Assembly: GCA_041738755.1 (NCBI GenBank)
Contig: JBGSPE010000005.1
Location: 207,872 to 271,871, forward strand
From: Minisyncoccia bacterium
GTDB taxonomy: Bacteria > Patescibacteriota > Minisyncoccia > Phycocordibacterales > UBA918
Direction: 5' to 3'
Length of the DNA: 64,000 nucleotides
Numbering within the stretch: the stretch's first letter is position 1; the number at the start of each line of letters is the position of its first letter. Position numbers and translations under genes: made by a program. Shown piece by piece: positions 998 through 49,100 of this stretch. The notes under the pieces are model-generated. The model was not told where the DNA came from and did not search any database. It worked only from the letters and a program-made list of their open reading frames with translations.

Positions 998-2221
998 ATG
1001 TTTTTTTCTTCTCAGCGTGAGTCCGAACGGTATGGCGTTATTGTCGACATTGGTTCAGGGAGTGTGTTGGCTGCGATTATTCATTCTGACGAGAGTAAAG
1101 CAACTCCAACTATCGTCTGGTCACACCGTGAGCACGCTCCATTGAAAACCATCGCCAGCGTTGAAGAGAGTGCCAAAGCTGTCATGACCGCACTCATGCA
1201 AGTCCTTATGTTACTTGATAGCGAAGGTCGTCGCGCGCTTAAGGAGTACAAATCAAGCGCAAAAATAGGAGAAATTCAATATTGTATTAGCGCACCGTGG
1301 GCGTACACCATTACCAAAACTATTTCCTACACCGAAGACACTGAATTCGAGATTACAAGTGAACTTTTGGAAGAGCTAGAAATGGCTGCCGAACAAAAAA
1401 CGAACGTTGAACTATCGCAAAGTGATTCGGTGAGTCAACTAGGTCTTAGTATTGTGGCCCGTACGACGATGGATTTGTCAGTCAATGGCTACCAGATAAA
1501 AGACCCGTTACATAAGAAGGCCACCACGTTGGCTTTGGCTCATGCCAGCGTCATCACACAACAGTACCTCATCAACGAAATCGATGAACTACAGTCTAAA
1601 CTGTTTCCAGAAGCTTCCAGCAAAAAGCTGTCCTATATGTTGGCACTCTATTGTATTTCGCAAGACTTTATACCAAAAATTGAAGATGTTTGTTTAGTCG
1701 ATATTACGTACGAAGCAACTGAAATAGGTATTGTTCGAGACAAAACACTTCGCTACTCAACCCACACACCATATGGAAGCTTTTCACTTGCCCGAGAAAT
1801 TGCCCACGTTACGGGCGCTCCTGTTCATGAAGCATTTGGATATTTACATGAAGAAACTGCCTTTGCGTTCATGGAGACTCTCCCAGTCAAGCACAAAGAA
1901 GAAGTGGAGCAAATATTTGAAGCATATATTGAACGTGTTACTGCACTATTCCACGAAACGGGTGATGCGCTTTCGATACCAAAACGCCTACTGGTCCATA
2001 CTTATGCCCAGTCTGAATCACTGTTTTGTGAACTTATCGAAAAGGCTGCTAAAAGAGCGGTCAAATCGAATCCAATAATAACCCTCCTTACCAGTAAGTT
2101 ACTGGCTGAGATTACGATTGCTAACAAAGATGCTTCTTGTCACTTCAATGACACCGCTATGTTGTCGTCGGCTCAGTTTTTCCACAAACGCAATCACTGC
2201 CATAGCTTTGAGTACTTATAA
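998..2221 (+). CDS. actin-like (ASKHA superfamily, FtsA/PilM-like) ATPase, hypothetical
   Basis: It has two phosphate-binding motifs about 220 aa apart, VIVDIGSGSV and VCLVDITYEATEIGIV. I place the start at ATG 998 because TGTATAAT at 984-991 sits 7 nt upstream, giving a leaderless mRNA. The track's TTG at 983 is inside that -10 box. Confidence 0.5.
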   Translation: MFFSSQRESERYGVIVDIGSGSVLAAIIHSDESKATPTIVWSHREHAPLKTIASVEESAKAVMTALMQVLMLLDSEGRRALKEYKSSAKIGEIQYCISAPWAYTITKTISYTEDTEFEITSELLEELEMAAEQKTNVELSQSDSVSQLGLSIVARTTMDLSVNGYQIKDPLHKKATTLALAHASVITQQYLINEIDELQSKLFPEASSKKLSYMLALYCISQDFIPKIEDVCLVDITYEATEIGIVRDKTLRYSTHTPYGSFSLAREIAHVTGAPVHEAFGYLHEETAFAFMETLPVKHKEEVEQIFEAYIERVTALFHETGDALSIPKRLLVHTYAQSESLFCELIEKAAKRAVKSNPIITLLTSKLLAEITIANKDASCHFNDTAMLSSAQFFHKRNHCHSFEYL

Positions 2222-30243: not shown

Positions 30244-30869
30244 CAGTAGATGAGTATACTGAAGAGAAAATCCTTGAAGACTTGGACCGTCTGTCTTATC
30301 TGTATGGACTCAAGCGTGTCATGCGATACAATCAACAACGCGAAGAGCCACTCTATACAGAGTCGGTAGCTGAACACCTATATGGTATGAACTTACTAGC
30401 TCAGTACTTTTTACCTCTTGAAGATCCGGCAGGACTATTTAACCGGGCGCGCATATACGAAATGATTACCCTCCATGATATTGATGAAATTGAAACTGGT
30501 GATGTGCTTGGGTACACCAAAACAGACGCGATTCGAGAGCAGGAAGTAGTTGCTATGCGGATAGTAGCGGAAAAATCTCCTCAGCACATACAATCATTTA
30601 TAAAAGAGCGAGTTGAAGAGTATGAAGCAAAAGAAACCATAGAGGCGAAATTTGCCCGTGCTATCGATAAAATGGAGCCACTTGTGCACATCTATCACCC
30701 CATGGTTCGTGACATTTTACACATCAATCAAACAACCATTGAACAGTCACGGAGCATCAAGGACAAATATATCGCTGACTTTCCCTTTATTACAAAGTTC
30801 AATGAAACCGTTCACCAAAAACTCGACACGGACGGATTCTTTTGGACACCAGGTGTCACACTCCATTAA
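30240..30869 (+). CDS. HD-domain hydrolase (YfbR-like 5'-deoxynucleotidase family)
   Basis: ESVAEHL...HDIDEIETGD pattern. Confidence 0.65.
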   Translation: MTVDEYTEEKILEDLDRLSYLYGLKRVMRYNQQREEPLYTESVAEHLYGMNLLAQYFLPLEDPAGLFNRARIYEMITLHDIDEIETGDVLGYTKTDAIREQEVVAMRIVAEKSPQHIQSFIKERVEEYEAKETIEAKFARAIDKMEPLVHIYHPMVRDILHINQTTIEQSRSIKDKYIADFPFITKFNETVHQKLDTDGFFWTPGVTLH

Positions 30870-30889
30870 GCGCATGCTACACTTATGTC

Positions 30890-31633
30890 ATGAGTGATGC
30901 TGTCACTAGTATTTTTTCTATCAAAACGGACACCTTTGAAGGTCCGCTTGAATTGTTAATTGAGCTCGTCGAGAAGCGAAAACTTTTGATTAATAGCATC
31001 AGCCTCGCCAGCGTAACTGATGAATACATGGCTCGAGTAAGTGCCATGCAAGAACAATCACTGCCACATACCGCGCAGTTTATTACCCTGGCTGCCACAC
31101 TCCTCCTTATTAAGAGTAAATCATTACTTCCAATCCTTGATCTCACTGATGAAGAAGAGGCAAGTATTGAAGACCTTAATGAACGACTCAAGCAGTACCA
31201 ACTGTTTCGTTCGATTGCGGTCGTTATTCAGAGCACCTACGGTCAAGCAGTGATGCATGAACCTGAGTACACACCACCAAGAGAGCCACTTTTTATCCCT
31301 GACACATTTACCACTGTCACTTCGCTAAAAGAGGCGATGGAGCGGGTGATCACCAATCTTCCAAAAGCAGCACCGGAAAAACCGACCGCTCGTGTCAGGC
31401 CGACTATCTCACTTGAAGAAATGATGGATAATTTAAAACGAAGGATTGAACAACAGATGAAGATGAGCTTTTTTGATATCAAACGGAGAGAACCAGAGCG
31501 TAAAAATGTGATTGTTGGATTCCTGGCAATCTTGGAACTTTTTAAACAAGGTGATGTATTAGTGACACAACTCACACGCTTTGCTGATATTGAAATGGAA
31601 TTAGAACGGAGCGAGATTCCTCGGTATTACTAA
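30890..31633 (+). CDS. scpA: segregation and condensation protein A
   Basis: FEGPLELLIELVEKRKLLINSISLASVTDEY. The start is at MSDAV.., an internal Met of the track ORF. Confidence 0.85.
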   Translation: MSDAVTSIFSIKTDTFEGPLELLIELVEKRKLLINSISLASVTDEYMARVSAMQEQSLPHTAQFITLAATLLLIKSKSLLPILDLTDEEEASIEDLNERLKQYQLFRSIAVVIQSTYGQAVMHEPEYTPPREPLFIPDTFTTVTSLKEAMERVITNLPKAAPEKPTARVRPTISLEEMMDNLKRRIEQQMKMSFFDIKRREPERKNVIVGFLAILELFKQGDVLVTQLTRFADIEMELERSEIPRYY

Positions 31634-31646
31634 GATATAAAAAAGA

Positions 31647-31716
31647 CCGGTTGGTCTAGAGCTATCGTCATCCTACACACGTGCAGGGATAGCTTAAGAC
31701 CAACCGGCTATAAAGT
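31647..31716 (-). terminator. 70-nt imperfect hairpin with U tract on the minus strand (terminator-like)
   Basis: GACCGGTTGGTCTAGAGCTATC...GATAGCTTAAGACCAACCGG. The minus-strand sense ends in TCTTTTTTAT. Confidence 0.45.
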
Positions 31717-31838: not shown

Positions 31839-31900
31839 AAAAGGCCGGAGTCCCTGGGGTACACATGTAACACGTGGGGGGACTCCGGCCTTGGCTTTTT
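31839..31900 (+). terminator. strong stem-loop followed by GGCTTTTT
   Basis: AAGGCCGGAGTCCC...GGGACTCCGGCCTT, a 14-bp GC-rich stem with an inner palindrome ACATGT. Confidence 0.55.
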
Positions 31901-31979
31901 ACGAGGCTTAGCTCGGCTCACCGGTGGGGAATTGTTCCGACGAACGTACCCAATGGGAGACTAATGCGTTGGGAGGTCA

Positions 31980-32090
31980 ATGAGCTATAACGAGTACTTT
32001 ATAGCCTGTCCTGCACTGTTCACCGCTGCATGTTCTGGACTTATAATAGCACTATTTATTCAATTGGTCAACAGAAGCCCTCTTTTATAG
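31980..32090 (+). CDS. 36-aa hydrophobic peptide (small membrane peptide, type I toxin-like)
   Basis: MSYNEYFIACPALFTAACSGLIIALFIQLVNRSPLL. An SD (GGGAGG) ends 3 nt before the ATG. One predicted TM helix. Not in the ORF track because it is under 60 aa. Confidence 0.4.
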   Translation: MSYNEYFIACPALFTAACSGLIIALFIQLVNRSPLL

Positions 32091-32142: not shown

Positions 32143-32190
32143 AAAACCCCTGCCAACTCTTGAGAGAGTGGCAGGGGTATGAAGGTTTTT
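32143..32190. terminator. bidirectional terminator shared by the convergent small ORFs
   Basis: CCCCTGCCA..TGGCAGGGG, flanked by AAAA on the left and a T run on the right. Confidence 0.6.
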
Positions 32191-32253
32191 GATACCTACA
32201 AACAGTTATCGGCGTCTTTCGCCGGGTTCAGACTTTCGGCCGACCAGGATCGA

Positions 32254-32370
32254 TCAGATCGTGGCGGCGCCGGCGATCGCGGCAGGGATCGAGGTGTTGC
32301 TGTCGAGCGTTTCATCATAGGCCGGGGCAGCGGTCGTGCCGGGCGGCTGGAAGGTGCAGATGGTCTTCAT
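32254..32370 (-). CDS. 38-aa Ala/Thr/Pro/Gly-rich peptide ORF with strongly anomalous GC
   Basis: MKTICTFQPPGTTAAPAYDETLDSNTSIPAAIAGAATI. GC3 is about 86%, against roughly 35% in neighbouring genes. SD GGGAGA lies 7 nt upstream. The overlapping 32179..32394 plus-strand track ORF is an R/G-rich frame shadow. Confidence 0.45.
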   Translation of the reverse strand: MKTICTFQPPGTTAAPAYDETLDSNTSIPAAIAGAATI

Positions 32371-32419
32371 AGGATATTCTCCCAAAGAGTCTGAGAGCGA
32401 GAATGCTTCAGACCCCTAG

Positions 32420-32448
32420 ATATTAGCATATGACACACAATATGTCAA
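32420..32448 (-). promoter_or_regulatory. strong sigma70-like promoter (TTGACA-17-TAATAT) driving the minus-strand small ORF
   Basis: Minus-strand -35 is the complement of 32443-32448 and -10 the complement of 32420-32425. A GTCAA direct repeat and a TGACA/TGTCA inverted repeat overlap it. Confidence 0.6.
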
Positions 32449-32531
32449 GCGTCAAATGATGGTTTTTTGCAGGGGAGTAACTATGCACAAAAAACACACG
32501 AATTAAAGGTTTTTCGTGCTAAACTGCCGGT

Positions 32532-33053
32532 ATGCCATTGTCGGTCCTCATTGAAGCAGTGCTGTTTTATAAAGCCAGCCCACAAAAGAAATCTGTCTTG
32601 CAGAAGCTTTTTATGGCTGACGATGTAGTGTGGCATGAAGCCATTACCGAACTTAAAAGTCGACTAGAGTCAGGAGCTACCCGCCTGGTAGAAACTGATA
32701 CTGAATTATTGCTGGCCACTGCCCCAGAACTCTCAGAACTAATAGACTCACTCCGCAAGGAAGAACTTAAGGGTGATATCGGAAAAGCAGGGGCTGAAAC
32801 TCTGGCTATCGTTCTCTATAAAGAACCGGTATCGAGAGCAGAGATAGATCGTATCCGTGGTGTAAACTCTGCGTTTATCTTACGCAACCTCATGGTCAAG
32901 GGACTTATCAAGCGTGAAGCAGTGGGGAATAGTTTTCAATTTCATATCACTCCTGAGCTCTTGCAACACCTCGGTATTACAAATAAAATCAATCTCCCGC
33001 AGTACAGTGAATTCATGACTGCTCTTGAGACATTTAACCAAACTCCCGTATGA
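32532..33053 (+). CDS. scpB: segregation and condensation protein B
   Basis: ...AEIDRIRGVNSAFILRNLMVKGLIKRE..., a ScpB winged-helix pattern. Confidence 0.85.
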   Translation: MPLSVLIEAVLFYKASPQKKSVLQKLFMADDVVWHEAITELKSRLESGATRLVETDTELLLATAPELSELIDSLRKEELKGDIGKAGAETLAIVLYKEPVSRAEIDRIRGVNSAFILRNLMVKGLIKREAVGNSFQFHITPELLQHLGITNKINLPQYSEFMTALETFNQTPV

Positions 33054-48355: not shown

Positions 48356-48763
48356 CTAGAATTTACAATTGGTGGCGGGGGTGTAGCCCGCCGCTTCTGC
48401 TTCAACGATTGATGTAAATGAGATGAGGTTATCTGGTTTGATCTGCTTGGCCCCTGGGCAGGTCGGCAAGTGGTACTTGGTGCCTGATTTTGAGGCGACC
48501 ACTGCCCCACCTCCGGGTACGACCGTGCCGTCCGCTTCAAGACCTTGTGATACTCCAGTAACGGCTTCAATTGGTGCTGCAGCCTGGTTATTGGGGATAA
48601 TAGCCGGGTATTCGGCAATAACCGCCCCTATCGGAGCAGCCACTTGCCCTACCCTACCCACCGACTGCCGACCAAGGCCAAATGAGGCCACCGCAACAAG
48701 GACTAATAAAAGGCTATAAAAAACGACATCGTTGGCTAAGAGGGACTTGAGTTTTTCGAACAT
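48356..48763 (-). CDS. hypothetical signal-anchored protein with C-terminal YHxPxC..GYxP..C motif
   Basis: Truncated from the track's 48356..49045, because the longer form overlaps rpmA. Starts at MFEKLK... Confidence 0.45.
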   Translation of the reverse strand: MFEKLKSLLANDVVFYSLLLVLVAVASFGLGRQSVGRVGQVAAPIGAVIAEYPAIIPNNQAAAPIEAVTGVSQGLEADGTVVPGGGAVVASKSGTKYHLPTCPGAKQIKPDNLISFTSIVEAEAAGYTPATNCKF

Positions 48764-48812
48764 ATAACGTATACTCGCAGGCGTTAATTTGTAACCATTA
48801 TACCTTAATCTT

Positions 48813-49100
48813 ATGGCAACTAAAAAAGCTGGCGGTACCGCTAAAAACCTGCGCGATTCGCAACCAAAGTACTTGGGTGTGAAGCGCGCGGACGGACAAA
48901 AAGTGAAGACTGGCGAGATCATCGTACGACAACGTGGTACGAAGATTGAAGCTGGAAAAGGCGTGAAGGTTGGAAAAGACCACACCCTGTTTGCCATGGT
49001 TGATGGTGTGGTTTCTTTCCGAGATATGCGAAAGATCCGTTTCAACGGTAAAAAAGTAAATAAGAAAGCTGTTGATGTAGTAGCTCCAGCTACTGCGTAA
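48813..49100 (+). CDS. rpmA: ribosomal protein L27
   Basis: [38 protein letters not shown].. Confidence 0.93.

Follow-up and report, generated by a model that had tools for sequence, protein, structure and literature searches.

A GC-rich patch on the minus strand of a 64,000-nucleotide stretch of DNA from a Minisyncoccia bacterium (positions 207,872 to 271,871 of contig JBGSPE010000005.1, assembly GCA_041738755.1; the whole stretch is referred to below as the window and is numbered from its first letter) was found to be the coding region and proximal 3' untranslated region (UTR) of a small, separately transcribed gene located between scpA and scpB. Comparison with related genomes indicates that this gene belongs to an unannotated, lineage-specific family of small peptides in a subset of Paceibacteria, which are members of the candidate phyla radiation (CPR), and that the GC excess is an inherited and maintained property of this family and not the mark of a recent transfer. 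The new family combines a maintained excess of GC at third codon positions (GC3), hypervariability amid conserved flanks and a fixed genomic site.

The GC content of the patch was measured at 63.9% over 32205-32370, where an initial annotation made from the sequence had estimated about 63%, and the maximum of the entire window (64.8% over 165 nt) was located at 32210-32374, approximately 3.8 standard deviations above the window mean of 43.5% (standard deviation 5.6%). The 38-codon open reading frame (ORF) on the minus strand (32370-32254), whose translation was exactly as first reported, has a GC content of 0.50, 0.63 and 0.87 at the first, second and third codon positions (GC1, GC2 and GC3) respectively, compared to a mean GC3 of 0.41 (standard deviation 0.07, maximum 0.58) for 68 long ORFs of the window; the GC3 anomaly first put at about 86% against about 35% in the flanks is thus real. 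Using a codon-adaptation index built on the window genes, a comparison that the initial annotation had proposed, the ORF remained an outlier, with a value of 0.593 compared to 0.751±0.029 for genes (z = -5.4), which was below 99.86% of random 38-codon gene segments.

The unit lies within the 898-bp gap between scpA (30842-31633, plus strand) and scpB (32532-33053, plus strand), is divergent from scpB and consists, in order, of a sigma-70 promoter with an extended -10 element, a 5'-terminal stem-loop, a Shine-Dalgarno (SD) sequence, the 38-codon ORF, a UGA stop codon, a GC-rich and structured 3'UTR, an AU-rich block and a terminator, giving a predicted transcript of approximately 270 nt (all on the minus strand). 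A promoter scan identified a -35 hexamer, TTGACA (32443..32448), which is kept at all homologous loci, and an extended -10 element, TATGCTAATAT (TG plus TAATAT; 32420..32430); together these form TTGACA-17-TAATAT with an upstream TG (32448-32420), matching the consensus at 10 of 12 positions, and transcription would start at about 32413-32416. The 5'-terminal stem-loop GGGGUCUGAAGC-AUUCUC-GCUCUCAGACUCU (32386..32416) was predicted by both the minimum free energy (MFE) and the centroid fold (z = -3.5) and is followed by the SD sequence GGGAGA (32378..32383), which is positioned 7 nt 5' of the ATG in a weak local hairpin (UGGGA/UCCUA). The ORF with its TGA, MKTICTFQPPGTTAAPAYDETLDSNTSIPAAIAGAATI, occupies 32254..32370, and a hairpin is predicted at 32237..32272 in which the end of the ORF (its last four sense codons) is base-paired with the start of the 3'UTR and the UGA stop lies in the apical loop. 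The proximal 3'UTR (32205..32253) is 59% GC and contains small hairpins, for example CGGCG-AAAGA-CGCCG; it leads into the AU-rich block AACUGUUUGUAGGUAUCAAAAACCUUCAU (32179..32207) and an intrinsic-terminator-like hairpin, ACCCCUGCCA...UGGCAGGGGU followed by UUUU (32143..32178, with arms at 32146-32155 and 32169-32178), which was overlooked by a consensus terminator scan because it has only 4 U. The full transcript folds at z = -3.6.

The description of a real small gene with its own near-perfect sigma70 promoter and a GGGAGA SD at 7-nt spacing is therefore upheld, with a terminator added. The initial annotation had also proposed that the SD could be sequestered by an ATTCTC/GAGAAT stem; the complementarity is present in the sequence, but in both predicted folds (MFE and centroid) ATTCTC forms the loop of the 5' hairpin, and homologues, several of which have other weak hairpins (UGGGA/UCCUA, GGG/CCC, AGGA/UCCU) that engage the SD, do not keep this pairing. 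A C/D-box-like AUGAUGA...CUGA pair was also considered and rejected, as homologues do not keep the pair.

To define the family, 80 Paceibacteria loci were collected using an alignment-based ScpB profile and 18 loci were dissected (loci are designated by L numbers). At least 20 related genomes, with ScpB proteins only 52-89% identical to that of the window, were found to carry a homologous unit at this site. The loci L002, L003 and L004 (ScpB 88-89% identical) have the same promoter, a minus-strand ORF of 37-39 codons with a GC3 of 0.76-0.86 and the same aligned TGA. The typical spacing between scpA and scpB among the 80 loci is approximately 55 bp, and where the gap is 500-1900 bp the GC content rises to a peak of 0.63-0.71 at a constant distance from scpB. 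A minus-strand TTGAC(A)-N12-TATGCTAnnAT promoter was present in 18/18 dissected loci, and the pattern TTGAC-N13-TATGYTA was found at the same position in 14 homologous loci. The 5' hairpin was seen throughout, except that it was absent or unclear in L007 and L066, and 17 of the 18 loci have a strong SD (GGAG, GAGG, AGGA or GGGA) whose distance to the ATG is 4-10 nt, L045 having only AAAGG. The distance from the ATG of the small gene to that of scpB was 164-184 nt in 15/18 loci and 135-153 nt in L007 and L037. ORF length varied from 29 to 51 codons across the dissected loci (29-52 in the family as a whole, a further species contributing three more alleles, of which the two complete ones have 40 and 52 codons), and the stop codon was TGA in all 18 loci and in both of these complete alleles. 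The stop context CUGAYCG recurs, often at a hairpin apex; the stop codon lies in a hairpin loop in 8/18 alleles and at or beside the predicted apex in approximately five more (L008, L011, L043, L082 and L083), which is suggestive of a conserved hairpin around the stop codon, with a local folding z that averages only -0.5. GC-rich hairpins follow the stop in the 18 loci, and a terminator was recognisable where traced.

On a ScpB tree the carriers fall mainly in two clades, with a few scattered carriers, and close non-carrier relatives exist (for example L080 beside L083). An nhmmer search with an alignment of four sequences returned only weak extra matches because the family sequences diverge too quickly, and two pattern scans of metagenome contigs, one for the promoter and one for the conserved 3' block, gave 0 matches in a collection which evidently does not contain these organisms.

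It is common practice to interpret local GC anomalies of this kind as horizontal transfer or as structured RNA. For the patch, the suggestion had been that it was recently acquired from a high-GC organism (an actinobacterial host, for instance), which would be compatible with a real GC and GC3 anomaly, the low codon adaptation of the ORF to the window genes and a recombination-prone, strain-variable site. This origin is nevertheless very improbable, as at least 20 genomes, separated by deep divergence, share the anomaly at the corresponding syntenic site. Its presence in genomes whose ScpB proteins differ to this extent means that the anomaly is old and maintained; indeed, the proportion of synonymous differences (pS) in scpB is 0.66-0.79, which is saturated, such that imported GC-rich DNA would long since have drifted to the base composition of the genome around it. 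The cassettes are mutually homologous in promoter, SD, N-terminal motif and stop, and the GC-rich zone begins exactly at the ATG, behind a promoter and 5'UTR which are native-looking and not GC-rich. There was also no match to a donor, and no homologue outside the family in the protein databases: phmmer against 1.84 billion representatives returned only 4 long low-complexity repeat proteins, word and profile searches of 5.8 billion clustered proteins returned only the family's own members, and an exact look-up of the 38-amino-acid peptide and a word search with a 43-amino-acid form returned nothing. A search of plasmids gave one 46-bp chance match and a search of phages gave none (no BLASTN search was made of nt or of actinobacterial genomes as such). 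There is no tRNA in the window, no mobility genes were found, the neighbouring genes are housekeeping genes, and the sole flanking repeat is a weak inverted pair of 17 nt with 76% complementarity, which looks like chance. The closest named relatives of the window's ScpB are from Paceibacterota, Kaiserbacteria and Parcubacteria metagenome-assembled genomes; the organism is therefore a CPR bacterium of the Paceibacteria and not a Saccharibacteria-type epibiont of Actinobacteria, an association with actinobacteria having been raised as a possibility. The small gene resembles acquired islets in being a GC and codon-usage outlier at a strain-variable site, but differs from them in that the anomaly is common to the clade's syntenic homologues and in having no donor in the databases searched.

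Conservation patterns indicate that the 38-codon ORF is protein-coding. An N-terminal motif, aromatic-x-P-(P/x)-G, is conserved (for example NFSPxG in L045, L052, L057 and L065), and the codons at conserved positions vary synonymously (F as TTC/TTT; S as TCA/TCG/TCC; P as CCG/CCT/CCC; G as GGC/GGG/GGT/GGA). In the frame defined by the SD and ATG, GC content shows a three-base periodicity in 15/18 loci, whereas the equally GC-rich 3'UTR (approximately 62% GC in the family) shows no periodicity (phases 0.61/0.62/0.62). In the further species mentioned above, whose ScpB is 100% identical on 10 contigs, the three alleles differ by substitutions and by indels that preserve the frame (6, 15 and 15 nt), and alleles A and B have identical UTRs. 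The alternative that the patch is a structured non-coding RNA, with one frame of its GC-rich core open by accident, which had been raised initially, draws on the enrichment of GC-rich intergenic patches of AT-rich genomes for structured RNAs (PMC8723152, PMC6429828), on the folding of the whole transcript and on a calculation from base composition that a 38-codon frame would be open by chance with a probability of approximately 0.4 at 65% GC. The two ends of the transcript are indeed structured: the 110 nt 3' of the stop have a family mean folding z of -2.5, and all 16 5'UTRs tested form a hairpin (z from -0.4 to -5.5) which begins 0-5 nt from the predicted 5' end in all but L076. The 5' stem sequences are unrelated between loci (GGUCUGA/UCAGACU, GUGUCU/AGACAC, UACCCG/CGGGUA and others), and the retention of the hairpin despite this amounts to informal covariation. 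The ORF segments, however, show no excess structure relative to dinucleotide shuffles (mean z = 0.04 over 18 loci), and together with the periodicity, the synonymous codons, the in-frame indels and the strong SD and ATG of nearly all loci this makes an RNA mimicking an ORF improbable. Homologues in which the frame is broken and pairing preserved, which had been put forward as a sign of such an RNA, were not encountered, the indels being in-frame and the single frameshifted member, L003, carrying a compensated shift that restores the frame. In Rfam 15 no match reached the gathering thresholds anywhere in the window; for the region, a search at E <= 10 yielded nothing that rose above noise, and 8 homologous loci had no match at E <= 1. 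The candidates tmRNA, tRNA-like elements, RNase P and the signal recognition particle RNA were rejected in the absence of ARAGORN or Rfam support.

The locus was found to be hypervariable between strains. In L002 and L003, scpA, scpB and the promoter of the small gene are 100% identical, and the cassette is 0-78% identical; the divergence extends from approximately the transcription start to approximately 100 nt past the scpA stop, with identity breaking off at the extended -10 element. The same pattern of conserved flanks and divergent cassette was observed for L043 and L045. When the window was compared with L002, pS and the proportion of nonsynonymous differences (pN) were 0.18 and 0.27 for the small ORF and 0.75 and 0.08 for scpB; the corresponding values were 0.35 and 0.41 (scpB 0 and 0) for L002 against L003, and 0.50 and 0.39 (scpB 0.16 and 0) for L043 against L045. 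These rates are decoupled from the flanks, and the alleles are therefore exchanged or maintained independently of the genomic background. In a test for purifying selection, the N-terminal motif was conserved with synonymous variation, yet the pN/pS of the whole ORF ranged from 0.55 to 1.5. In L003 a -1 shift is offset by a +1 shift approximately 60 nt later, such that approximately 20 codons are read in another frame, no stop is met and the same stop is restored. Other segments are unusually well conserved between the window and L002: the N-terminal codons are approximately 90% identical, better than the housekeeping flanks, identity is 95-100% across 32151-32191 compared to approximately 78% in scpA and scpB, and the AU-rich block and terminator are also 95-100% identical (the block alone is identical in L002 and has one A-to-U change in L003, and the terminator hairpin is kept in both). 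The scaffolds of L085, L086 and L087 have N-runs that start in the 5'UTR, exactly at the cassette, where the assemblies are broken or gap-filled, and one allele was seen only on ten contigs (L095-L104) of 530-929 bp. The locus is thus a hotspot of strain heterogeneity that fragments metagenome assemblies.

The GC excess is limited to two segments, the ORF and the proximal 3'UTR, and within codons it is most pronounced at the third position. Family means for GC1, GC2 and GC3 are 0.56, 0.53 and 0.79, with GC3 the highest in 15/18 loci, compared to a GC3 of 0.32-0.59 for scpB at the same loci and a GC content of 33-48% for the remainder of the variable gap; carrier genomes are 38-50% GC while the GC3 of their small genes is near 0.8-0.9. 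As GC2 is also raised (approximately 0.38 in genes), GC pressure seems to shape the A/G/P/T-rich composition of the peptide, and not the reverse. Several causes of the GC-richness were rejected. Codon adaptation does not account for it, the index of the ORF being low and the ribosomal-protein genes in the window having a GC3 of 0.35-0.42, which indicates that high expression is achieved without high GC3 in this genome. Local structure in the ORF (folding z of approximately 0) and a Rho utilisation (rut) site, which would be C-rich and G-poor, were also discarded, the C/G ratio being near 1 in many members. Instead, GC-richness may be kept by selection acting on the nucleotide sequence of the ORF and proximal 3'UTR, possibly because a GC-rich transcript would resist AU-specific endonucleases, or because a stop-codon-poor composition would keep a fast-changing frame open. 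The invariant UGA could itself be a product of GC pressure, since a change from TGA to TAG would have to go through TAA.

The explanation that we consider probable is that the unit is a strongly expressed small mRNA whose GC content is kept by nucleotide selection and which encodes a short, disordered, fast-evolving peptide. The 5'-terminal hairpins of mRNAs such as ompA protect them, and the promoter, the 5' hairpin and the AU-poor body would here give an abundant, long-lived mRNA. The encoded peptide would be short and disordered (AlphaFold2 gave a mean pLDDT of 57.6 and no secondary structure), constant at its head and variable in its tail, and would evolve under relaxed or diversifying selection, with alleles exchanged by recombination; in this it would resemble strain-specific peptide loci of signalling, competition, or host or phage interaction. 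Several points weigh against this explanation. No signal peptide, transporter, receptor or modifying enzyme adjoins the gene, which leaves an extracellular or interaction role as no more than an analogy. The promoter, the start of transcription and the terminator are all predicted, and the relatives are metagenome assemblies throughout. A pN/pS near 1 and the compensated frameshift of L003 would equally fit a peptide of little sequence importance, and would favour a regulatory ORF. The AU-rich 3' block, which is better conserved than the flanking genes in the window, L002 and L003, points to an additional function at the RNA level. Lastly, the GC-richness could have its source in recombination-linked GC-biased gene conversion (PMC4450053); this is a candidate because the locus is recombinogenic, but it is disfavoured, and improbable as the only cause, because the other variable segments of the gap have a GC content of only 33-48%.

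The most serious competitor, although clearly less likely, is a regulatory ORF or dual-function RNA, for which translation from the SD to the conserved UGA would matter and the peptide would not; translation, possibly throttled by an early P-P-G, would control the folding, stability or processing of the 3' region, and the AU-rich block and terminator would act as a base-pairing small RNA. The pN/pS range, the return of L003 to the same stop, the UGA kept in its CUGAYCG context and often at a hairpin apex, the folding of the 3'UTR, the near-identity of 32179-32207 and the terminator in L002, and synonymous sites that are more conserved than those of scpB (pS 0.18 compared to 0.75) are all consistent with this. 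It is countered by the lack of a same-strand gene downstream to regulate, by the retention of the AU-rich block only in the closest relatives of the window and not family-wide, and by the finding that no target better than shuffled seeds was present among 67 translation-initiation regions of the window; moreover, one species varies mostly in the ORF, with identical UTRs, which looks like selection on the peptide, and the UGA may simply be trapped by GC pressure. A bolder proposal, and an unlikely one, is that the gene is a dedicated strain-diversification cassette of CPR bacteria, a very strongly transcribed, GC-rich and hence stop-codon-poor ORF whose transcribed region, from approximately the transcription start onwards, is replaced or reshaped between otherwise identical strains. 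If so, the variable tails would be strain-specific signals or determinants of self/non-self recognition or of host or phage interaction, GC-richness would be selected to keep a changing frame open, and a previously undescribed type of polymorphic micro-gene would exist in ultra-small bacteria. Strains at pherotype loci carry differing alleles between identical flanks, and the occurrence of different alleles between identical flanks here, together with the conserved N-terminal motif, a semi-conserved G-A-G or L-G-D, a hypervariable C-terminal tail and a predicted strong promoter, could also be read as a ribosomally synthesised and post-translationally modified peptide (RiPP), pheromone or bacteriocin-like precursor with a short conserved leader and a variable core. 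A loose RiPP or linaridin likeness had been noted initially, and the conserved N-terminus and variable C-terminus are real, but such a precursor is very unlikely: none of 7 family members matched Pfam or NCBIfam, including the RiPP precursor models, at E <= 1, the neighbourhood (scpA, scpB and dcw genes) has no gene for a modifying enzyme, a transporter with a peptidase domain or a receptor, there is no signal peptide or double-glycine leader consensus, the putative core would be only 3 residues in the window, and G-A-G motifs arise easily from GC-rich codons (GGC GCC GGC).

A number of known systems share features with the small gene. Polymorphic peptide loci of the ComC/ComX/AgrD type also have a small ORF with a conserved N-terminal and a variable C-terminal part, and distinct alleles between identical flanks, with some blocks closer across species than the flanks. 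They differ in that the small gene has no adjoining processing, export or receptor genes and no recognisable leader or signal, in that they offer no counterpart to its GC and GC3 excess, and in that the host here is an uncultivated CPR bacterium; the small gene is at best a putative member of this class. The dual-function RNAs SgrS/SgrT, RNAIII/hld and SR1/SR1P are similar in having a small ORF in a unit of this size (approximately 270 nt) with its own promoter and terminator and a structured 3' region, conserved in part more strongly than the ORF, but for the small gene no target was found in the window, the 3' block is confined to close relatives and there is no Rfam family. The non-coding RNAs of GC-rich intergenic regions (PMC8723152, PMC6429828) correspond in the long intergenic region, the sharp GC peak in a 43% GC genome and the structured ends, whereas the GC core of the small gene is an ORF with codon periodicity and no excess folding. 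Finally, TnaC-type leaders and the polyproline stall peptides relieved by elongation factor P (EF-P) are comparable in that the small gene is likewise a very short ORF, with an early P-P-G in many family members, an invariant UGA and RNA structure immediately behind the stop; however, there is no same-strand downstream gene and no terminator/antiterminator pair was identified, and one clade has S-P-x-G or D-x-G-G instead of P-P-G.

Further candidates were rejected. A type I toxin-antitoxin system was discounted because the peptides are A/G/P/T/S/D-rich with no hydrophobic stretch and AlphaFold2 predicts no helix; in addition, the promoter scan found no antisense promoter over the ORF. The target of a diversity-generating retroelement was discounted because there is no second copy of the patch within the 64-kb window and the alleles show indels and all types of substitution. 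A leader or arrest-peptide attenuator was excluded because no minus-strand ORF of at least 30 amino acids follows the terminator, beyond which lie a promoter-driven small RNA unit and the convergent scpA. A likeness between MK-x-TFQP and the N-terminal residues of ribosomal protein bL34 was rejected, since the peptides are not basic and the match covers approximately 6 residues.

With regard to the genomic setting, scpA is preceded by aspS, a leucyl aminopeptidase gene and an HD-domain gene, and scpB is followed by a D-Ala-D-Ala carboxypeptidase gene, mraY, ftsW and murG (dcw genes, for cell division and the cell wall). All 898 bp of the intergenic region recur, base for base, in the independent Logan assembly SRR28170465; the patch is therefore not an assembly chimera, a possibility that the initial annotation had advised checking. 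In the Logan assembly of the same sequence, a 71-amino-acid ORF on the plus strand (32179-32394) is called as a gene. This was rejected, as L003 has an interruption in this ORF, which runs antisense to the small ORF in codon alignment; it stays open automatically because the small ORF is GC3-rich, and a filtered ORF scan found no comparable long plus-strand ORF in most relatives. It is most likely a gene-calling artefact.

Other elements were observed in the gap. Between the small gene and scpA lies a second, ORF-less, promoter-driven unit (31840-32071, minus strand), for which the promoter scan gave TTGACC-17-TATTAT (32071-32043, minus strand) and which ends in a terminator with a 14-bp perfect hairpin (31841-31892, minus strand). 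It is kept in L002, L004, L008 and L088/L090, and related units occur in L005, L009, L010 and L016. It contains the invariant C-rich, anti-SD-like motifs UUGACCUCC and AGUCUCCCAUUG, the latter being complementary to the SD of the small gene (UGGGAGA), and its closing helix shows compensatory changes in 6/31 pairs. Rfam gave no match for this unit, which is a candidate new small RNA. Antisense to its 5' part, a 36-amino-acid hydrophobic ORF, MSYNEYFIACPALFTAACSGLIIALFIQLVNRSPLL, is present at 31980-32090 (plus strand) and is preceded by GGGAGG; this apparent SD is simply the reverse complement of the CCUCCC motif of the second unit, and no plus-strand promoter was seen upstream of the ORF. A type I toxin-like arrangement of this ORF and the second unit was considered. 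Directly after the scpA stop, at 31647-31707, there is a 20-nt inverted repeat with 90% complementarity and 21 nt between its arms; 31647-31687 is approximately 95% identical in L002 and L003, above scpA itself, and the strain-variable region starts beyond it. Within the variable gap of L002 there is also a promoter-preceded 57-amino-acid ORF (1351-1524, minus strand; MNWNVLSGLTLYMGALFGG...) with two predicted hydrophobic helices, which is missing from L003 despite the identical flanks.

On the other side of the small gene, scpB appears to have its own extended -10 element, TGCTAAACT, at approximately 32495-32531 (plus strand), which takes the form TGCTACACT or TGCTACAAT in other loci. In nearly all loci it ends only approximately 8-12 nt before the ATG, which suggests a leaderless or very short-leader mRNA, and it overlaps a conserved hairpin, GCACGAAAAACC...GGTTTTTCGTGC, resembling a minus-strand terminator. 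Elsewhere in the window, the second-highest GC peak (60%, at 48371-48535) lies in the C-terminal part of an ordinary minus-strand gene (48356-49045) which terminates in a Cys/His motif (YHLPTCPG...GYTPATNC). A weak tblastn match of the small peptide at 48501-48584 (E = 0.1) was dismissed as coincidental, being antisense to this real gene.

The readings usually given to a local GC anomaly, horizontal transfer and structured RNA, do not fit this locus, and it serves as a caution that composition alone is insufficient to infer host-to-symbiont transfer. Across the clade a high GC3 persists, while strains whose neighbouring genes are identical differ in the peptide and even in the whole cassette. 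Confirmation of this would provide a testable case of nucleotide-level selection, or of another local force, acting on the composition of a coding sequence, and the strain-variable, assembly-breaking locus could be used as a strain marker. It would also add an unannotated family of small proteins to the poorly known biology of the Paceibacteria.

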